Positions 3,468 to 29,587 of a stretch of DNA of 49,806 bases are shown piece by piece. Positions within the stretch are counted from its first letter, which is position 1. The number at the start of each line of letters is the position of its first letter. The notes under the pieces were generated by a model that searched no databases, was not told the origin of the DNA, and saw only the letters and a list, made by a program, of their open reading frames with translations. The stretch is from Promethearchaeota archaeon (GTDB lineage Archaea > Asgardarchaeota > Lokiarchaeia > Sigyniarchaeales > SOKP01), in NCBI GenBank assembly GCA_013375475.1, contig JABXKD010000016.1:1-49806 (forward strand), given 5' to 3'. The translations under genes were made by a program, and so were the position numbers.

Positions 3468-4064
3468 CTACGCTAAAATACAGGTTTTCAAAAGAGTGAT
3501 ACTTTCCGCTCTTGCTCTTAGTATCGTTCTTTCTGCTATTCCGTCCATATCTTTCGAAGTAAGTATTTTTTCCTCTAAGACTTTTTTATAAAGCAAATAC
3601 TCATCTTTTCTACTAATGAATGGATCTACCTCTTCTGCGTGGATATAATTATCTATGTGTTTTTTTTTCCCGTTGTAATTTCCTTCTGTAAGATCAAACT
3701 GGTAGTCCTCATATACAAGAAAACAATGGACCATTGGGACGTATGGAATATCATATTTTTCTAATATATGTTGAACTCCCGTTGTTATCTCCTCCGTTAA
3801 TTTGTAAACGTACACATATTTATACAGTGGAATTTTAAGTTCTTGTGCGAGTTCTGCGATAACAGCATGTTTGGAGGTGCACGAGCCTTTTTTTTCCTTA
3901 AAAAGTATCATCCTATCTTCATAGTCTGTATTGTACCCATAGTCAACATTGTGCACGTAATTGCAAGCATCTTTGAAGGTTTTAATTCCTAAATCTAAAA
4001 ACTTTTTTGAAAGTTCTCCTACGGGTTTAAGCTCCACATCGGGCAGTTTATCATATGAATCCAT
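3468..4064 (-). CDS. Hypothetical protein, possible transglutaminase-like fold
   Basis: GSCTSKH, HCFL, FDLT could supply a Cys-His-Asp triad. Confidence 0.5.
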   Translation of the reverse strand: MDSYDKLPDVELKPVGELSKKFLDLGIKTFKDACNYVHNVDYGYNTDYEDRMILFKEKKGSCTSKHAVIAELAQELKIPLYKYVYVYKLTEEITTGVQHILEKYDIPYVPMVHCFLVYEDYQFDLTEGNYNGKKKHIDNYIHAEEVDPFISRKDEYLLYKKVLEEKILTSKDMDGIAERTILRARAESITLLKTCILA

Positions 4065-4237
4065 ACTATAGGTTTTTTTTACATAAATTTAAATTATATC
4101 TCTATAGACTATAGAAATTACTCGGATTCAAAAAAAAATAAAATTTTATGTTATTTCTAAATCCTTTTATAAGTTATTCTCTTCTATAACAAATCAAGGA
4201 AAACGAATTTGAAACTAAATTGGTGAAACAACACTCT

Positions 4238-5683
4238 ATGACTGATAAGAAGAAACTTCCCAATATCGTAATTTTCCTCCCAGATTCAATGAGAGGTGAT
4301 GCTGTTTCTTTAGGAGGCCTAGTTAATTCCTATATTAAAACCCCTAACATGGATAAAATTGCTAAAGAAGGTATAGCCTTTACTAATTGTTTTACTGTTA
4401 ATACAGTATGTGTTCCTTCAAGGTGTTGTACTTTTACGGGACAATACGTGCATTCCAATGGACATAGAGGGTTGTATCAGCTATTACAACCTCATGAGGA
4501 AAATTTGTTTAAATTTCTAAGAGATAATGATTATAACGTAATTTGGGTGGGTAGGAACGATTTATTTAGTAAAGAATCGGGAAAAATAAGTGTTACTAAA
4601 CGAATAAAAGCTAATAGGAGGTTCCACTATAAGTCTAATCCATATCCTGAGGGTCACTACTTAAGAAAATCGTTTTATTATGGTGAGAGAACAAAAGAAG
4701 AGGCAAAAGATATTGATTATTATCTCATTCAAGATACGCTCAGATATCTCGATTCAATCCCTGAAACTCCGTTCTGTCTTTACGTTTCTTTAAATTTCCC
4801 TCATCCTCCTTATACCGTAGAAGAGCCTTATTTTTCTATGTATGATCGCAATGAAATACCTATTCCTCTCCCTTCTAATCTTGATGATAAACCTGAATTT
4901 ATGCGTATAATGCGTGAAAGATACGGACTAGCGAACCTTAAAGAAAACGATTTCAAAGAAATAGTCGCAACGTATTACGGCATGATTACAAGAGTGGATC
5001 ATCAGTTAGGGGAAATATTAGATAAACTCAAAGAAATAGGAGAATACGAGAATAGTGTTATCTCAATTTTTTCGGATCATGGCGATTTCACGGGAAATTA
5101 TGGGCTGACTGAAAAATGGCCAAACGCCTTCCAAGATTGCCTTACTAGGGTTCCATTAATACTGAAAATTCCCGGCGTTAGACCAAAGGCAAAAGTATTT
5201 AATCAGCTTGTCGAATCAATAGATATTTTTCCTACAATACTTGAAATTGCTCAAATAGAAACCCCTTACACTCATTTTGGAAAAAGCCTTATACCCATAA
5301 TTAAAGGTGAAAAAGAAGAGATTAGAAATGCTGTATTTGCTGAAGGTGGATACGATCTAAGAGAGCCACAATGCTTTGAGACTATAATCAAAAATCCTAA
5401 CGATCCCAATTTAGGTATTTATTACGAAAAGACGAATATTCCACAGAAGCATCCATTAACAGTCGCTCGTTCAGTAATGATTAGGACTCTTGAATTGAAA
5501 CTAGTACTGCGTTCTGCAGGAAAGGAAGAGTTTTACGATCTAGGCAACGATCCCAACGAATTAAATAATTTAATCGATAGTTCTACGAATGAAGTAATTA
5601 AAAACGATCTAAAAGAGCAATTGCTCAGATGGTATTTGCGAACCAGTGATAATTCAGATTGGAAAAGAAAAAGAATTGCATAA
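4238..5683 (+). CDS. Sulfatase (formylglycine-dependent, choline-sulfatase-like)
   Basis: PNIVIFLPD, CVPSR...TG signature, PHPPY, SDHGD; likely ATG at 4238. Confidence 0.9.
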   Translation: MTDKKKLPNIVIFLPDSMRGDAVSLGGLVNSYIKTPNMDKIAKEGIAFTNCFTVNTVCVPSRCCTFTGQYVHSNGHRGLYQLLQPHEENLFKFLRDNDYNVIWVGRNDLFSKESGKISVTKRIKANRRFHYKSNPYPEGHYLRKSFYYGERTKEEAKDIDYYLIQDTLRYLDSIPETPFCLYVSLNFPHPPYTVEEPYFSMYDRNEIPIPLPSNLDDKPEFMRIMRERYGLANLKENDFKEIVATYYGMITRVDHQLGEILDKLKEIGEYENSVISIFSDHGDFTGNYGLTEKWPNAFQDCLTRVPLILKIPGVRPKAKVFNQLVESIDIFPTILEIAQIETPYTHFGKSLIPIIKGEKEEIRNAVFAEGGYDLREPQCFETIIKNPNDPNLGIYYEKTNIPQKHPLTVARSVMIRTLELKLVLRSAGKEEFYDLGNDPNELNNLIDSSTNEVIKNDLKEQLLRWYLRTSDNSDWKRKRIA

Positions 5684-5803
5684 AAAAAAGAAATTCTAAT
5701 AACCTTACACTGATTTTCTATGTGGAACTAATTTTTATTAGGTTACATATTATCTTTAATATTTAGTCTAAAATATTTTTCCACAATAAAAAAGGTTTGA
5801 AAG

Positions 5804-7051
5804 TTGACAATATTCGAAGATGCATTAAAAGGCATTACTACTCTTGAGATGCTCCAAGTAGCTGAAAATGAGAAAATTAACTCAAAAAAAGTTGTTAAGA
5901 ACATCTCAAAGGGAAGAATAGCAATAATGAAAAGGGACAATTTCAACCCTGTAGGTATAGGATTTCCTCTCAGAACAAAAATTAATGTAAATCTTGGGAC
6001 ATCTTCTTCGACTATTAATATTGACGAAGAGTTTAAGAAAGTAGAGATCGCGCAGAAATATGGAGCTGACACTATTTCGGATCTATCTATGGGCGGAGAT
6101 ATTGACGCAATTAGGAGGAATATATTAAGCATCTCAAACTTACCTTTAACTACCGTTCCAATCTATCAAGCAATTATAGAAGCAGATTCGGCGTCTAATG
6201 TTTCAGAAGATTTAATCTTCAAAGTAGTTGAAAAGCAGATAAAAGACGGGATAAGCTCGATAGTAGTACATTCTGGTTTTACTCTTGAGACTTTAAATCT
6301 TATGAAAGGCAAAAGAATAATGAAAATAGTCTCTAAAGGAGGGAGTTTGACAGCTTCAATTATGAAATCGGCTCATATGGAAAATCCATTTTTAAAAAAT
6401 TTCGAACAGCTTTTAGAACTTATTAAAGAACATGATATTGTAATAAATTTAGGTAATGCGATGAGATCTGGCTGTATTCACGACAAAGTGGACGGATTTC
6501 AGCTCGCAGAACTAAAAACAAATGCTAAACTCGCAAAAACTGCCAATAAATTTGGAGTTCAAGTAATTCTAGAGAGCCTGGGTGGTCATATAATCGCGAA
6601 AGACATTATCAATTACGTAAAGCTATACAAAAAATTAACGAATAATCGTCCTTTATTTGTTTCTGGTCCACTCCCTATAGATACCGCAACGGGTTACGAT
6701 CATATCGCGGCTGCGATCGGAGGTTCGTTTGCCTCCGGATTTGGAGCAGATTATATATGTGCTATCACACCAGCAGAGCATCTTTGTTTACCATCCCTCG
6801 AAGACATTAAAGAGGGATTAATCGCATGCAAAATAGCTGCTCACGTAGGGGACTCTATGAAATTCGGTTTGAACCATCTTTTCGCTAACGATTTAGAGCT
6901 GTCAAAGAATCGATTTTCTAGGAATTGGAAAAAACAATTCGAGTATTGCATAGATCCAACTGAACCAGAAAAAAGACACCCCGTTTCTGAAGAAATGTGT
7001 AGCATGTGTGGAGCTCACTGCGCTTTATCAATGTCAAAAAAGATTTTATAA
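5804..7051 (+). CDS. Divergent ThiC-family radical SAM enzyme (ThiC/Bza-like paralogue)
   Basis: KINVNLGTS, GADTISDLS, GYDHI, TPAEHL, C-terminal CSMCGAHC cluster motif. Confidence 0.8.
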   Translation: MTIFEDALKGITTLEMLQVAENEKINSKKVVKNISKGRIAIMKRDNFNPVGIGFPLRTKINVNLGTSSSTINIDEEFKKVEIAQKYGADTISDLSMGGDIDAIRRNILSISNLPLTTVPIYQAIIEADSASNVSEDLIFKVVEKQIKDGISSIVVHSGFTLETLNLMKGKRIMKIVSKGGSLTASIMKSAHMENPFLKNFEQLLELIKEHDIVINLGNAMRSGCIHDKVDGFQLAELKTNAKLAKTANKFGVQVILESLGGHIIAKDIINYVKLYKKLTNNRPLFVSGPLPIDTATGYDHIAAAIGGSFASGFGADYICAITPAEHLCLPSLEDIKEGLIACKIAAHVGDSMKFGLNHLFANDLELSKNRFSRNWKKQFEYCIDPTEPEKRHPVSEEMCSMCGAHCALSMSKKIL

Positions 7052-25263: not shown

Positions 25264-25824
25264 TTATTTCTTGTTTTCTAACCAATCTTCTTTAAATAGC
25301 GAATAAACAAACGTATCATAATATTCCCCATTAACATACATATTTTTTTTAAATGTAGCTTCGCGGGTAAACCCATTCTTTTCCGCACAATGCCAAGATC
25401 CGATGTTAACAGAATTTATTCCGGCATAAATTAAGTAAAGGTTTAATTCGTTGAAAGCATATTCAACCATTAGACGCGTTACTTCTTCGCCTATCTTCTG
25501 CCCCCAATATTCAGGTTCACCTATAACTAAGCCTAACCATCCTTTTTGACCATACCAATCAATATCGTTAACCGCTCCAAACCCAATTGATTTTTTATCT
25601 TTTTTGTGCCACACTTCAAAGTTTATTTCTCTTTTCATTCTATCTTTAGATGGCTCAAAAAATTTTTTCATATCTTCAACGGTATTTGGAATTATATTTC
25701 GAGAATATATGCGCACATTTGGTGTATTTTCCCACTTTACATACAGGTTGATGTTTTTGCTATTTAATGGGACTAAATCGATAATTTCTCCCTTAATAAA
25801 TACTGGAACTTGAGAATCGTTCAT
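25264..25824 (-). CDS. RimJ/RimL-type GNAT acetyltransferase (copy 4)
   Basis: IGEPEYWGQKIG, FNELNL, N..S...AEKNGF.RE; likely ATG 25824 by alignment with neighbour. Confidence 0.88.
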   Translation of the reverse strand: MNDSQVPVFIKGEIIDLVPLNSKNINLYVKWENTPNVRIYSRNIIPNTVEDMKKFFEPSKDRMKREINFEVWHKKDKKSIGFGAVNDIDWYGQKGWLGLVIGEPEYWGQKIGEEVTRLMVEYAFNELNLYLIYAGINSVNIGSWHCAEKNGFTREATFKKNMYVNGEYYDTFVYSLFKEDWLENKK

Positions 25825-25841
25825 AATTATACCAATTTTGA

Positions 25842-26405
25842 TTAAATTTTTTTCTTGGTTTTTAACCAATCTTCTTTTAATAACGAATAAACAAATCTAT
25901 CAAAATATTTCCCATTAATGTAATTATCTTTCTTAAATGTAGCCTCGCGGACAAATCCATTCTTTTCAGCACAACGCCAAGATCCGATGTTAGCAGAACT
26001 TATTCCGGCATAAATTTTGTAAAGGTTTAATTCGTTGAAAGCATATTCAACCATTAGACGTGTTACTTCTTCACCTATTTTCTGTCCCCAATATTCAGGC
26101 TCACCTATTTCTAAGCCCAACCATCCTTTTTGAGTATACCAATCGATTTCTACTCTTCCGAAACCTATGGTTTTTTCATCTTTTTTGTGCCAGACCTCAA
26201 AGGAAATATCTCTCTTAGTTTTATCATTGGAGGGCTCAAAGTTCTTTTTCATATCTTCGATAGTTCGTGGAAAAATGTTTCGAGAATATATACGTACATC
26301 AGAGTCATTTTTCCACTTTGCAAATAGGTTAATATTTTTACTATTTAGTGGCACAAAATTGATGATTTCTCCCTCAATAAATACAGGAACTTGAGATTCG
26401 TTCAT
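25842..26405 (-). CDS. RimJ/RimL-type GNAT acetyltransferase (copy 3)
   Basis: Same motifs; close paralogue of 25264-25824. Confidence 0.88.
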   Translation of the reverse strand: MNESQVPVFIEGEIINFVPLNSKNINLFAKWKNDSDVRIYSRNIFPRTIEDMKKNFEPSNDKTKRDISFEVWHKKDEKTIGFGRVEIDWYTQKGWLGLEIGEPEYWGQKIGEEVTRLMVEYAFNELNLYKIYAGISSANIGSWRCAEKNGFVREATFKKDNYINGKYFDRFVYSLLKEDWLKTKKKI

Positions 26406-26426
26406 TATTTTTCCAACATTTTAATA

Positions 26427-27023
26427 TTATTTTTCGTTTGCTTTCATCCAATCTCTCTTGAAAAGAGCGTATTTATGAACGTCGTGATATGTCCCATCAA
26501 CGTATTCTTCTTCTTTAAAAACGCCTTCTTTTTTAAATCCTAATTTTTCAGCAGCACGGTGAGACCTTTCATTAGGCGTGTATATTCCTGCATATATCTT
26601 GTGCAAGTTTAATTCGCTAAAACCATATTCAATCACTAATCTTGAAGCTTCACCCGCTATACCTTTTCCCCAATATTCGGGTTCTCCGATCATGGCAAAT
26701 ATATTCGCATTACGATCCACCCACCGGATATGACCAAATCCAATATTACCTATTGGACGCTTATCGATCTTATGGTATATTGTAAAAGTGATAAATTCCC
26801 TTAGTTGTCCTCTTGGAGGGGGTTCTAACCATTTTTTTAATTCCTCAATAGTCCGCGGCCAATTGTTTCGAGAATATCGTCGTACTTCTGGATCGTTATT
26901 CCACTTACAAAATAAATCTATCCACTTAGTATTTTCAGCAACTAAGTCAATTCTTTCACCCCTGATGAAAGGAAAAACCTCAAGTTCTTTTTCTTCTTCT
27001 TTTTTTTCGTTTTCTTCTGTCAT
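26427..27023 (-). CDS. RimJ/RimL-type GNAT acetyltransferase (copy 2)
   Basis: EYWGKGIA, N.RS.RAAEKLGFKKEG. Confidence 0.88.
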   Translation of the reverse strand: MTEENEKKEEEKELEVFPFIRGERIDLVAENTKWIDLFCKWNNDPEVRRYSRNNWPRTIEELKKWLEPPPRGQLREFITFTIYHKIDKRPIGNIGFGHIRWVDRNANIFAMIGEPEYWGKGIAGEASRLVIEYGFSELNLHKIYAGIYTPNERSHRAAEKLGFKKEGVFKEEEYVDGTYHDVHKYALFKRDWMKANEK

Positions 27024-27053
27024 ATTTTACTTCATCCTGAAAGTGTTTAACGG

Positions 27054-27644
27054 CTATACCTCATTTGCTTTCATCCAATCTCTCTTGAAAAGAGCGAATT
27101 TATGCTCGTCGAGATATTGCCCATCAACATATTGTGATTCCTTTATAATCCCTTCTTTTTCAAAGCCTAGCTTCTCTGCTGCGCGAAGCGATCTTGCGTT
27201 TGGAGAATACACTCCAGCATAGATTTTGTGAAAATTCAGCTCAGTAAATCCATACCTAATTAATAATTTAGTAGCTTCTCCTATGATACCCCGCCCCCAA
27301 TATTCCTGTTCTCCGATGGATCCGAATATATTTGCGTTTCGATTAACCCAATTGATGCGACCAAACCCAACAATGCCTATAGGACGTTTATCACCTTTAT
27401 GATATATTGTAAATACGACATGATCCCTCATGTGTCTGTCTGCTGGCGGTTCAAACCATTTTTTTACATCTTCAAGAGTAAGGGGCCACATATTTCTGGC
27501 GTAATGTCGTACGTTTGGACTATTATTCCATTTACATTGTAATTTTGCCCATTTAGAGTTTCCCGCAACTAAATCGATTCTTTCTCCTTCTATGAAAGGA
27601 AAAACATCTTCATCATCTTGTTTATTTTCTTCTGATTCACTCAT
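27054..27644 (-). CDS. RimJ/RimL-type GNAT acetyltransferase (copy 1)
   Basis: EYWGRGII, NARSLRAAEKLGFEKEG; close paralogue of 26427-27023. Confidence 0.88.
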   Translation of the reverse strand: MSESEENKQDDEDVFPFIEGERIDLVAGNSKWAKLQCKWNNSPNVRHYARNMWPLTLEDVKKWFEPPADRHMRDHVVFTIYHKGDKRPIGIVGFGRINWVNRNANIFGSIGEQEYWGRGIIGEATKLLIRYGFTELNFHKIYAGVYSPNARSLRAAEKLGFEKEGIIKESQYVDGQYLDEHKFALFKRDWMKANEV

Positions 27645-28987: not shown

Positions 28988-29241
28988 TTGAATTCACCTA
29001 TATAAAATTAACCAGAATCCATTTGTTATTAATTTAATGATTGCAGAGTTCAAGATAGTTCGAAACCAGTTCTTATCGAATTGAGTTAGAATAATTTTAT
29101 GAAAAATAGAAAAAAAAATTGGGAATTTTTTTAAATTTGTGTTTAGACTTACATCACTTTTAAAGAATAATTAATAAAGGATATAGATCGAGAACGAATA
29201 AAAAATAAAAAAAAAATTATTGTTGAATTATTCAAATTGGA

Positions 29242-29484
29242 TTACATTAATTTCATTGCCAAAGCCATATCGTTGTCGGTAAGTATAAAGATTTAAAGTT
29301 AAACACTAAAAATTTTCTTTCTACCGGCGTGGCGAGTCATTTCGAGAGCTTTGTTTGTTACGCCTTTAGCGACTTTCTCAAGATAGTCGATTAATGCGTC
29401 AACAGCTTCACGAGCGACCATTTCAGCGCCGTTATCTTTCATTAACTTTCTAACGGGTGACCAGGCAAATACTTTTTTAGCCAT
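29242..29484 (-). CDS. Archaeal histone (HMf-like), two exons: 29484-29315 and 29284-29242; 70 aa after splicing
   Basis: SPVRKLMK.NGAEMVAREAV...ALEMTRHAGRKK + LTDNDMALAMKLM; exon 2 supplies the L2/alpha3 segment (R..D pair equivalent to RKTIKAED). Confidence 0.9.
29285..29314 (-). other. Candidate 30-nt bulge-helix-bulge mRNA intron
   Basis: GGUAG-AAAG-AA^A-AUUU...AAAU-CUUU-AU^A-CUUACC; contains two in-frame UAA stops. Confidence 0.85.
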
Positions 29485-29587
29485 TATTCTATTCCTCCAC
29501 TATTATTTTTTACTTATTTTTTTATAAAGTCCATAAAATTAAGTTTGAACTTTATTATATTATATAACTTCTTTCAAATATTTAAAA

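Follow-up and report, generated by a model that had tools for sequence, protein, structure and literature searches.

A probable bulge-helix-bulge intron in a histone coding sequence of a Lokiarchaeon, and related inserts at two sites in histone genes

The stretch of DNA analysed here (the window) comprises 49,806 nucleotides (nt) of contig JABXKD010000016.1 in assembly GCA_013375475.1 of a Promethearchaeota archaeon (Lokiarchaeia), a genome labelled G000 below. It harbours a split histone gene (29242..29484) on the minus strand, and coordinates within this gene are written from high to low where the 5' to 3' sense is meant. An open reading frame (ORF) at 29484..29299 (-) encodes 61 amino acids (aa) with the C-terminus RHAGRKK-IFSV followed by a stop. 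Read on with TAA as X, the same frame continues as X-L-X-IFI-LTDNDMALAMKLM-stop, and the expected histone C-terminus is thus encountered 30 nt further on, in frame. A preliminary description, made from the sequence alone, had reported just such a 61-aa product without helix alpha3 and a C-terminus displaced beyond two TAA codons; the sequence and its read-through translation agree with it. Exon 1 matched Pfam family PF00808 with 36 bits (cut-off 21.4) over profile positions 6-56 of 65, and since the match ends at position 56, alpha3 is missing from the unspliced ORF. The 30 nt are very likely a bulge-helix-bulge (BHB) intron within the histone coding sequence of a Lokiarchaeon, removed by the tRNA-splicing endonuclease EndA together with RtcB, and one of a set of introns at two sites, of which site 1 lies after MAKKV and site 2 after RKK.

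Exon 1 (29315..29484, -; 170 nt) extends from the ATG into the second Lys codon, of which it contains the first two bases, and covers alpha1, alpha2 and loop L2 as far as RKK. The predicted intron (29285..29314, -), delimited by sequence, read-through translation and a BHB scan, contains two in-frame TAA codons. Exon 2 (29242..29284, -; 43 nt) starts with the third base of the Lys codon, continues with LTDNDMALAMKLM, which encodes alpha3, and ends in a TAA stop at 29244-29242. A central helix of 4 bp is formed by the exonic strand AAAG (29317..29320, -) and the intronic strand CUUU (29290-29287, that is 29287..29290, -), the latter recognized both in the BHB scan and in the alignments of site-2 inserts. 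The helix is flanked by a 5' bulge AAA (29314..29316, -), with the predicted cut between 29315 and 29314, and a 3' bulge AUA (29284..29286, -), with the predicted cut between 29285 and 29284; the third base of the latter completes the Lys codon. Within the intron a hairpin is predicted (29291..29313, -), in which AUUU (29313-29310) and AAAU (29294-29291) adjoin the bulges, followed by UU/UU mismatches and an AGU/ACU stem with a GUUUA loop (29307-29297). On the outer side GGUAG of exon 1 (29325-29321, that is 29321..29325, -) pairs with CUUACC at the start of exon 2 (29278..29283, -) with one bulged U, as found in the orthologue comparison and the BHB scan.

The scanner returned an intron length of 30, a central helix of 4/4, an inner helix of 4 bp and an outer helix of 2 bp adjoining the bulge for the window gene as well as for its interrupted orthologues in genomes G002 and G028. 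The two 3-nt bulges lie on opposite strands, 4 bp apart, as is characteristic of BHB introns, and flanking helices are present on both sides; the outer one consists of 2 bp, the bulged U and 3 bp in G000 and is weaker in G002 and G028. The outer side of the BHB in the window counts as canonical to slightly relaxed. In the tRNA-type BHB arrangement both cuts fall after the second base of the bulge, a geometry that was checked here by the scan. The junctions given in the preliminary description (AAAG/CUUU, bulges AAA and AUA, outer stem with a bulged U) were reproduced by scanner and coordinates alike.

In silico removal of 29314..29285 gives RKK|LT and a 70-aa histone, as had been predicted, and this product is encoded directly by 27 of 30 orthologous loci of the same genus (from 61 related genomes), which are uninterrupted and read RKK|LT..DM.LAMKL. 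The remaining three loci, in G000, G002 and G028, carry a 30-nt insert at the identical place. A search at the DNA level in all 42 genomes of the genus revealed an orthologue in 36 (own count), and the alignment continues across the insert in the same three only. The insert is absent from G061, the closest relative, whose exon 1 is 98% identical. G000 has four histone genes, and the other three are uninterrupted with RKK[IV]T..D at the break point. The first bulge in G002 is AAU, so that the unspliced frame reads RKN; the invariant RKK is obtained there solely with the BHB cut, which supports the exact position of the cut. Exon 2 starts with CUUACC in the three intron-bearers, and with UUA, CUA or CUG followed by ACU or ACA in the nine intronless orthologues shown; the choice of CUUACC would fit selection for the G:C pair adjoining the bulge. 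Among DNA contigs from sequencing runs, a 154-nt contig of a co-occurring relative (run X1 record 2) contains an insert variant with one extra base, in which the inner pair adjoining the bulge has changed from A:U to G:C (reconstructed from the difference table). A contig of run X3 with a loose end at 29314 represents an intronless relative in the same sample.

A BHB of this quality is not frequent by chance. With a central helix of 4/4, an inner helix of at least 4 and an outer helix of at least 2 as criterion, in a genome of 32.5% G+C, a BHB at least as good was found at 62,581 of 6.98e8 cut pairs genome-wide (9.0e-5 per pair). Only two cut pairs, which are equivalent, restore the histone protein in the window gene, and the BHB lies exactly there.

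The protein encoded by the intronless orthologue of G014 is 99% identical to the read-through protein of the window over 80 query positions, 10 of which are the absent insert, and by reading of the alignment it differs from the predicted spliced product in one residue. Its residues 9-68 align without gaps to HPhA (1ku5) and HMfB (1a7w), in agreement with the HMf-like spacing noted in the preliminary description, and this alignment places the insert in the RHAGRK-T loop before alpha3. The complete fold alpha1-L1-alpha2-L2-alpha3 (65-70 aa) is reached only after removal of the insert, the unspliced ORF being without alpha3. Exon 2 of all 16 genes with an insert at site 2 stays open over 13 codons (15 in one) up to its stop. 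These exons invariably encode Leu, Thr, Asp, Met, Leu and Ala, and apart from Met, which has a single codon, each of these residues is specified by varying synonymous codons.

Inserts of this type were also found in a wider sample of 80 metagenome loci and 80 loci from species-representative genomes, some of which duplicate each other or G002 and G028. Protein searches returned a near-identical family named 'histone [Candidatus Lokiarchaeota / Promethearchaeota archaeon]' by its sources, as befits the Asgard-like host suspected before. Members of 61-66 aa with a junk tail behind RKK or RKN occur in public protein clusters, as does a product of 87 aa that represents translation of both inserts and has ten additional residues following MAKKV. 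In the 72 metagenome genes with a recognisable start, 14 inserts of 29-41 nt were found at site 1 and 12 of 30-32 nt at site 2, with both in 7 genes. The species-representative loci yielded 5 inserts at site 1, one of them on the complete chromosome CP070831.1 (L159), and 4 at site 2. A frame-restoring BHB cut pair is present in 35 of 35 inserts, with a central helix of 4/4 in 30 and of 3/4 in 5, while a 4/4 helix would be expected by chance in about 2 of 35 (91 candidate pairs x 2.4%, own arithmetic).

The inserts at site 1 conform to the consensus GGCAAA-GAAG-GU^A ... CUUY-AA^N-UUUGCC. Their outer helix of 6 bp is paired in 84 of 84 cells, and the compensatory combination GGCGAA/UUCGCC occurs in two sequences. 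At site 2 (15 sequences, 14 distinct, 17 pairs) 87.4% of the cells are paired, compared to 29-66% when the partner strand is slid, and the central helix is paired throughout (100%, 60/60 cells) while changing from AAAG/CUUU to GAAG/CUUC. Twenty-two cells are changed on both sides, and none of 500 shuffles reached the covariation score or the percentage paired. All 30-nt introns at site 2 share the same 9-position stem and 5-nt loop, with 4 stem pairs changed on both sides. The third base of the 5' bulge varies between A and U among species (8 AAA, 7 AAU), and the 3' bulge is AUA in 10, AAA in 4 and AUG in 1. In the outer helix the G:C pair adjoining the bulge is present in 15 of 15 sequences and the following A:U pair in 11 of 15, with no conservation of pairs beyond these two. 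A hairpin AGC-NNNUC-GCU and a 3' end of CUUU followed by an AA or AU bulge were seen in many inserts of site 1 as well as site 2 (loci L070-L229). The shared hairpin and 3' end suggest that introns of site 1 and site 2 may be related and that RAAG in the exon, as provided by Lys-Lys codons, would make a site permissive.

A second histone gene, here termed paralogue B, is intact in G000 (C155), and in seven genomes (G023, G028, G004, G005, G015, G032 and G035) 29 nt are inserted behind its codon 7. G023, G028 and G004 have an additional insert of 30, 30 or 34 nt at R-K^K-I-T. The promoter-like box, Shine-Dalgarno sequence, exons and 3.6 kb of upstream synteny are intact in the carriers, and the exons of the three genes with two introns differ by 14/2, 16/2 and 9/0 synonymous/non-synonymous codons. 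The second insert offers only one frame-restoring pair per gene with a central helix of 4/4, which covaries (GUAA/UUAU versus GAAA/UUUC). In the alignment of the first insert, with 15 pairs in 7 sequences, 94.3% of the cells are paired versus 14-52% when the partner is slid, 3 pairs are changed on both sides, and 0 of 500 shuffles reach the covariation score. Compensatory changes of the kind expected for a BHB intron were found in the alignments of paralogue B, site 1 and site 2. Together with insert lengths that are not multiples of three and with the conservation of exon 2 at the codon level, these changes speak for a removal of the inserts from the mRNA. One intronless paralogue B (G026 C301:367-561 (-), L044) has a single in-frame TAA replacing Glu (GLT*QARAF), which is either a nonsense mutation or a sequencing error, and not an intron.

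Several observations weigh against this interpretation. The query alignment was led by the intron-bearing translation, which biases the insert frequencies upward, and the sampled sequences are related, so that the counts are not independent. Inserts at site 1 with 3 of 4 central pairs (GAAG/CGUC) make up 4 of 14 in the metagenomes and 1 of 5 in the genomes, and the first insert of paralogue B has a central-helix mismatch, A.G or A.C, in 5 of 7 sequences. At site 2 the position outer3 is unpaired in 15 of 15 sequences, and two of the five measures did not rise above shuffles (pairs changed on both sides, 113/500; further pair types, 307/500). The preliminary description had looked to aligned orthologues for presence and absence of the intron and for covariation of the BHB. 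Presence and absence, geometry and covariation did hold; the outer exon-exon stem proved the weakest part, with 2 bp adjoining the bulge and a U:A pair that is lost in G002 and G028. In minimum free energy the 66-nt stretch does not surpass shuffled sequences (z = -0.88, 38/200 fold as well); fold energy was thus uninformative and was dropped as a criterion, the geometry being informative instead. Finally, a 2.8-kb insertion in G028 has the insert as its left end, an appearance that could also result where incoming DNA disrupts a gene.

The last point touches on the alternative that survives best, although it is improbable: the insert would not be removed at all, being a scar or junction of incoming DNA that truncates the histone to 61 aa in a dispensable pseudogene among four histone genes, with exon 2 kept only as DNA homology. 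Comparison of G028 with the intronless G005 showed that the insert, a new exon 2 and 2.7 kb of DNA are inserted after GGCAGAAAGAAA, and that the native exon 2 with its 3' untranslated region (UTR) persists 2.8 kb downstream. In G000, compared to G061 and G014, the native exon 2 and 3' UTR have given way to the insert, its exon 2 and ~150 nt of 3' flank, and the 3' region on the oligo-T side shares no homology with its counterpart in the closest intronless relatives. Elsewhere in G000, a different contig holds a native-type fragment of exon 2, and the three other histone genes of this genome are uninterrupted. Against this stands the chance of finding a BHB exactly at the frame-restoring cuts, about 2 x 9e-5, and the recurrence of the same geometry, accompanied by compensatory changes, in dozens of inserts that differ in sequence. 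Moreover, exon 2 is constrained at the protein level in 16 of 16 genes, and the inserts of G002, where native flanks surround the intron-bearing gene, and of paralogue B are clean and lie in syntenic genes with native flanks. The insert is thus real and probably functional as a BHB intron of an mRNA, as far as sequence comparison can tell.

The insertion in G028 (contig C83, L057, gene-oriented ~3672-6459) is flanked by a 12-nt repeat, GGCAGAAAGAAA. It contains three ORFs (94, 192 and 105 aa), none of which matched a functionally characterised family of Pfam or PHROG. An integrase was not found among them, which also speaks against the pseudogene explanation; an integrative element is neither confirmed nor excluded by these data. 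The insertion is absent from G000 except for 71 nt of intron and exon 2. A further insertion of 1.7 kb with a 561-aa ORF is located just upstream of the same G028 gene. The exon 2 fragment of G000 mentioned above is an orphan of the intronless type without exon 1 (C233:45182-45219 (+), L053), which reads ..TDNDMALAMKLM-stop and is followed by ~16 nt of native 3' UTR. An 820-nt block, shared at 96% identity with G034 (L061) and G031 (L062) and holding a 202-aa ORF on the other strand, terminates with this fragment; beyond the end of the block the three genomes differ. The orphan resembles the border of a mobile or recombining segment carrying a histone 3' end.

With regard to the BHB intron, the enzymes proposed in the preliminary description for its removal are encoded by the genome. 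G000 harbours two EndA genes (C215 and C133; 200 and 202 aa), both of which contain the domains PF01974 and PF02778, and an RtcB gene at C211 (560 bits). Read by eye for catalytic residues, one EndA has Tyr, His and Lys, and the other has no His. Aragorn, with introns allowed, marked an intron on 22 tRNA calls in G000, some of them doubtful; some of the predicted introns are implausibly long (359, 825 and 1623 nt) and may be false or hide other elements. PMC5829648 describes an (alpha-beta)2 EndA in Asgard archaea with a loop linked to broad specificity. In the proposed mechanism the central helix of 4 bp would arise in the pre-mRNA by pairing of AAAG in exon 1 with CUUU from the 3' end of the intron, flanked by the two 3-nt bulges, the inner intron hairpin and a short outer helix between exon 1 and exon 2. 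A heteromeric tRNA-splicing endonuclease, composed of the two EndA paralogues, would cut after the second base of each bulge, and RtcB would join the exons and probably circularise the 30-mer. Splicing would produce the 70-aa histone with alpha3, and unspliced mRNA would yield only the 61-aa product lacking it. Cleavage and ligation in vivo, the responsible enzymes and any regulatory use are what we infer from the sequences.

Removal from the RNA by something other than EndA and RtcB, either another RNase and ligase or self-cleavage, is less probable still. The relaxed outer helix could be taken in its favour, but the conserved elements, two 3-nt bulges 4 bp apart with symmetric cuts, are those of an EndA substrate, and both EndA subunits and RtcB are present in the genome. 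A group I or II self-splicing intron was rejected as a candidate: 30 nt is far too short for such a ribozyme, with its core of hundreds of nt, and no Rfam family matched in the window.

Decoding without splicing, by ribosome hopping across the 30 nt or by read-through of both TAA codons, is hardly credible. Translational bypass occurs in gene 60 of phage T4, and the insert in the window keeps the frame, with a hairpin downstream of the last sense codons. However, related inserts of 29, 31, 32, 34, 40 and 41 nt cannot be served by read-through, which would furthermore add 10 residues within the conserved RHAGRK-T loop that is gap-free to HMfB. No matched take-off and landing codons for a bypass were seen, the only AAA within the insert lands out of frame, and the conserved feature is a BHB and not a bypass signal.

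An assembly or binning artefact might be suspected, as G000 is a metagenome-assembled genome of 3.92 Mb in 288 contigs with 6.4% contamination. It can be dismissed, since G000 shares the insert at the same site with two other separately assembled species and many unrelated metagenome contigs, and long DNA contigs of two sequencing runs (X1 record 1, X3 record 8), one of which may be the source sample, span it without differences.

Gain and loss of the BHB introns of these histone genes are frequent. Of the 102 spliced coding sequences in a gene tree, 81 lack an insert, 8 have one at site 2, 6 at site 1 and 7 at both, and these states are scattered; the tree rests on 210 columns, has many unresolved forks and its bootstrap had not settled, while even on its well-supported branches at least 5 changes are needed at site 2. 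In G000 and G028, as read from the comparisons described above, the intron arrived at the DNA level together with a replacement exon 2; the intron thus moves between genomes as DNA, sometimes with neighbouring sequence. A tentative extension of this is that the inserts form one family of mobile mini-introns, which settle at exonic RAAG, spread as cassettes and, either as a by-product or as a regulatory device, tie the histone supply to the tRNA-splicing enzymes. Each insert might, if this rather speculative extension holds, bring its own half of the BHB (3' CUUU with an AA/AU bulge, often with AGC-NNNUC-GCU). Its target could conceivably be RAAG two bases 5' of the insertion, which is exactly what the Lys-Lys codons of MAKK.. 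and ..RKK offer. One might also imagine, with similar reserve, a cassette of intron plus replacement exon that passes between Lokiarchaeial species at the DNA level.

The preliminary description had further looked to a genome-wide scan for BHB motifs bridging split ORFs, and this did not reveal additional cases. The scan of G000 gave 2071 in-frame motifs compared to 2077 and 2135 in the wrong-frame controls, and stricter motifs gave 308 versus 310/293, 285 versus 312/327 and 139 versus 140/134. It required both exons to have at least 60 codons and a stop inside the intron, and was thus blind to exons as short as those of the histone gene; within this scope the lack of an in-frame excess gives no sign of many such introns in G000. 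A covariance model of the site-2 intron (R1) scored the window intron with 54.1 bits (E 3e-9) and found one further match in G000 at E <= 0.01, in frame inside an ATPase-like ORF. Across the 42 genomes of the genus R1 returned 9 matches: the three histone introns, the in-frame match of G000, a similar continuous ORF in G033, three matches where removal joins no ORF, and one other match, in G014. The matches in the ATPase-like ORF (G000 C211:82370-82404 +; G033 C62:6357-6391 +), at 30-35 bits, were rejected as false positives, as they are in frame and conserved at the protein level; this ORF has a P-loop-type GPPGTGKT motif, and the matching stretch reads ..KKEIL[HD]DFFKALKKY...

The cbf5 gene of G000 is uninterrupted. 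In five complete genomes of sister families 37 of 38 histone matches reach profile positions 63-65, the weakest ends at 62 and none stops at 56, a comparison that bears on site 2 and cannot judge site 1. Histone genes appear to be the only hosts of this intron within the limits of the scans, R1 being judged on the matches examined.

Upstream of the split gene a putative ribosome-binding motif, GGAGG (29494..29498, -), was read from the sequence 9 nt 5' of the ATG. The putative ribosome-binding stretch GTGGAGGAAT is conserved in G000, G061, G014 and G002 as well as upstream of the paralogues. A TATA-box-like motif, TTTTAAATATT (29577..29587, -), lies ~95 nt 5' of the ATG and is conserved in 4 of 4 aligned genomes; it presumably acts as a promoter, following the general archaeal promoter pattern. 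An oligo-T tract 3' of the stop (29200..29216, -), likewise read from the sequence, is a likely transcription terminator. Downstream of the histone gene and genes for membrane proteins the window contains four tandem paralogous ORFs of 187-201 aa (~25264-27644, -), all four of which are lacking at this place in G061.

The split gene is a core chromatin gene of Lokiarchaeia, which are among the closest archaeal relatives of eukaryotes and bear on the origin of eukaryotic gene architecture. It is not a single case, as the set covers two sites and two paralogues. Near-identical genes with and without the intron constitute a natural experiment on gain, loss and movement of BHB introns, in which two events at the DNA level are readable. 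Gene callers truncate these histones, so that Asgard histone inventories are partly wrong. Since archaeal ribosomes can translate unspliced RNA, the question arises how splicing keeps ahead of translation.

The window intron joins a known but very rare kind, the endonuclease-spliced introns within archaeal protein-coding sequence. The BHB introns in crenarchaeal cbf5 pre-mRNA are said to have been described by Watanabe in 2002 and Yoshinari in 2006, and reportedly were shown experimentally to be spliced by a hetero-oligomeric endonuclease. The histone introns resemble them as short BHB-bounded introns in protein-coding sequence with gain and loss between related lineages. They differ in that cbf5 encodes a pseudouridine synthase (Cbf5/dyskerin homologue) whereas here a histone gene is interrupted, in the Asgard phylum (Lokiarchaeia); in that this gene of ~210 nt has two sites and exists in two interrupted paralogues; in that presence and absence differ between species with a 98% identical exon 1; and in that at least two acquisitions took place by insertion or replacement of DNA and brought in a new exon 2. 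Splicing has been demonstrated by experiment for cbf5, and for the histone introns it is predicted from sequence. The crenarchaeal cbf5 introns are also the subject of Yokobori 2009 (PMC2738675).

A BHB intron in the 5' UTR of the HVO_1309 mRNA of Haloferax volcanii, with processing by the tRNA-splicing endonuclease confirmed in vitro, is reported in PMC7714728. It shares with the histone introns the presence of a BHB in an mRNA, but lies in an untranslated leader, while the histone introns interrupt codons. According to the same source, crenarchaeal cbf5 was, besides its own 5'-UTR case, the only mRNA BHB intron reported as of 2020 (PMC7714728). The literature searched, from which subscription journals were mostly absent, yielded no account of a BHB intron in an mRNA of Asgard archaea or in a histone gene.

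Compared to the BHB introns of archaeal tRNA and rRNA, the histone introns have the same 4-bp helix, two 3-nt bulges and cuts predicted after the second bulge base, and presumably the same enzymes. They differ in that their exons encode protein, that the frame has to be restored to the base and that ribosomes can translate the unspliced RNA. A eukaryotic counterpart is found in HAC1/XBP1, where IRE1 recognises two stem-loops and a tRNA-type ligase joins the exons in a stress switch. The XBP1 intron is also mentioned in PMC12530127. The histone and HAC1/XBP1 introns share a logic only: both are non-spliceosomal mRNA introns cut by a protein endonuclease, and in both the unspliced mRNA encodes a different C-terminus. 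By this analogy, which had been drawn in the preliminary description, regulation of the histone through splicing is possible. The structures differ, the histone introns being bounded by a BHB and those of HAC1/XBP1 by twin 7-nt loops.

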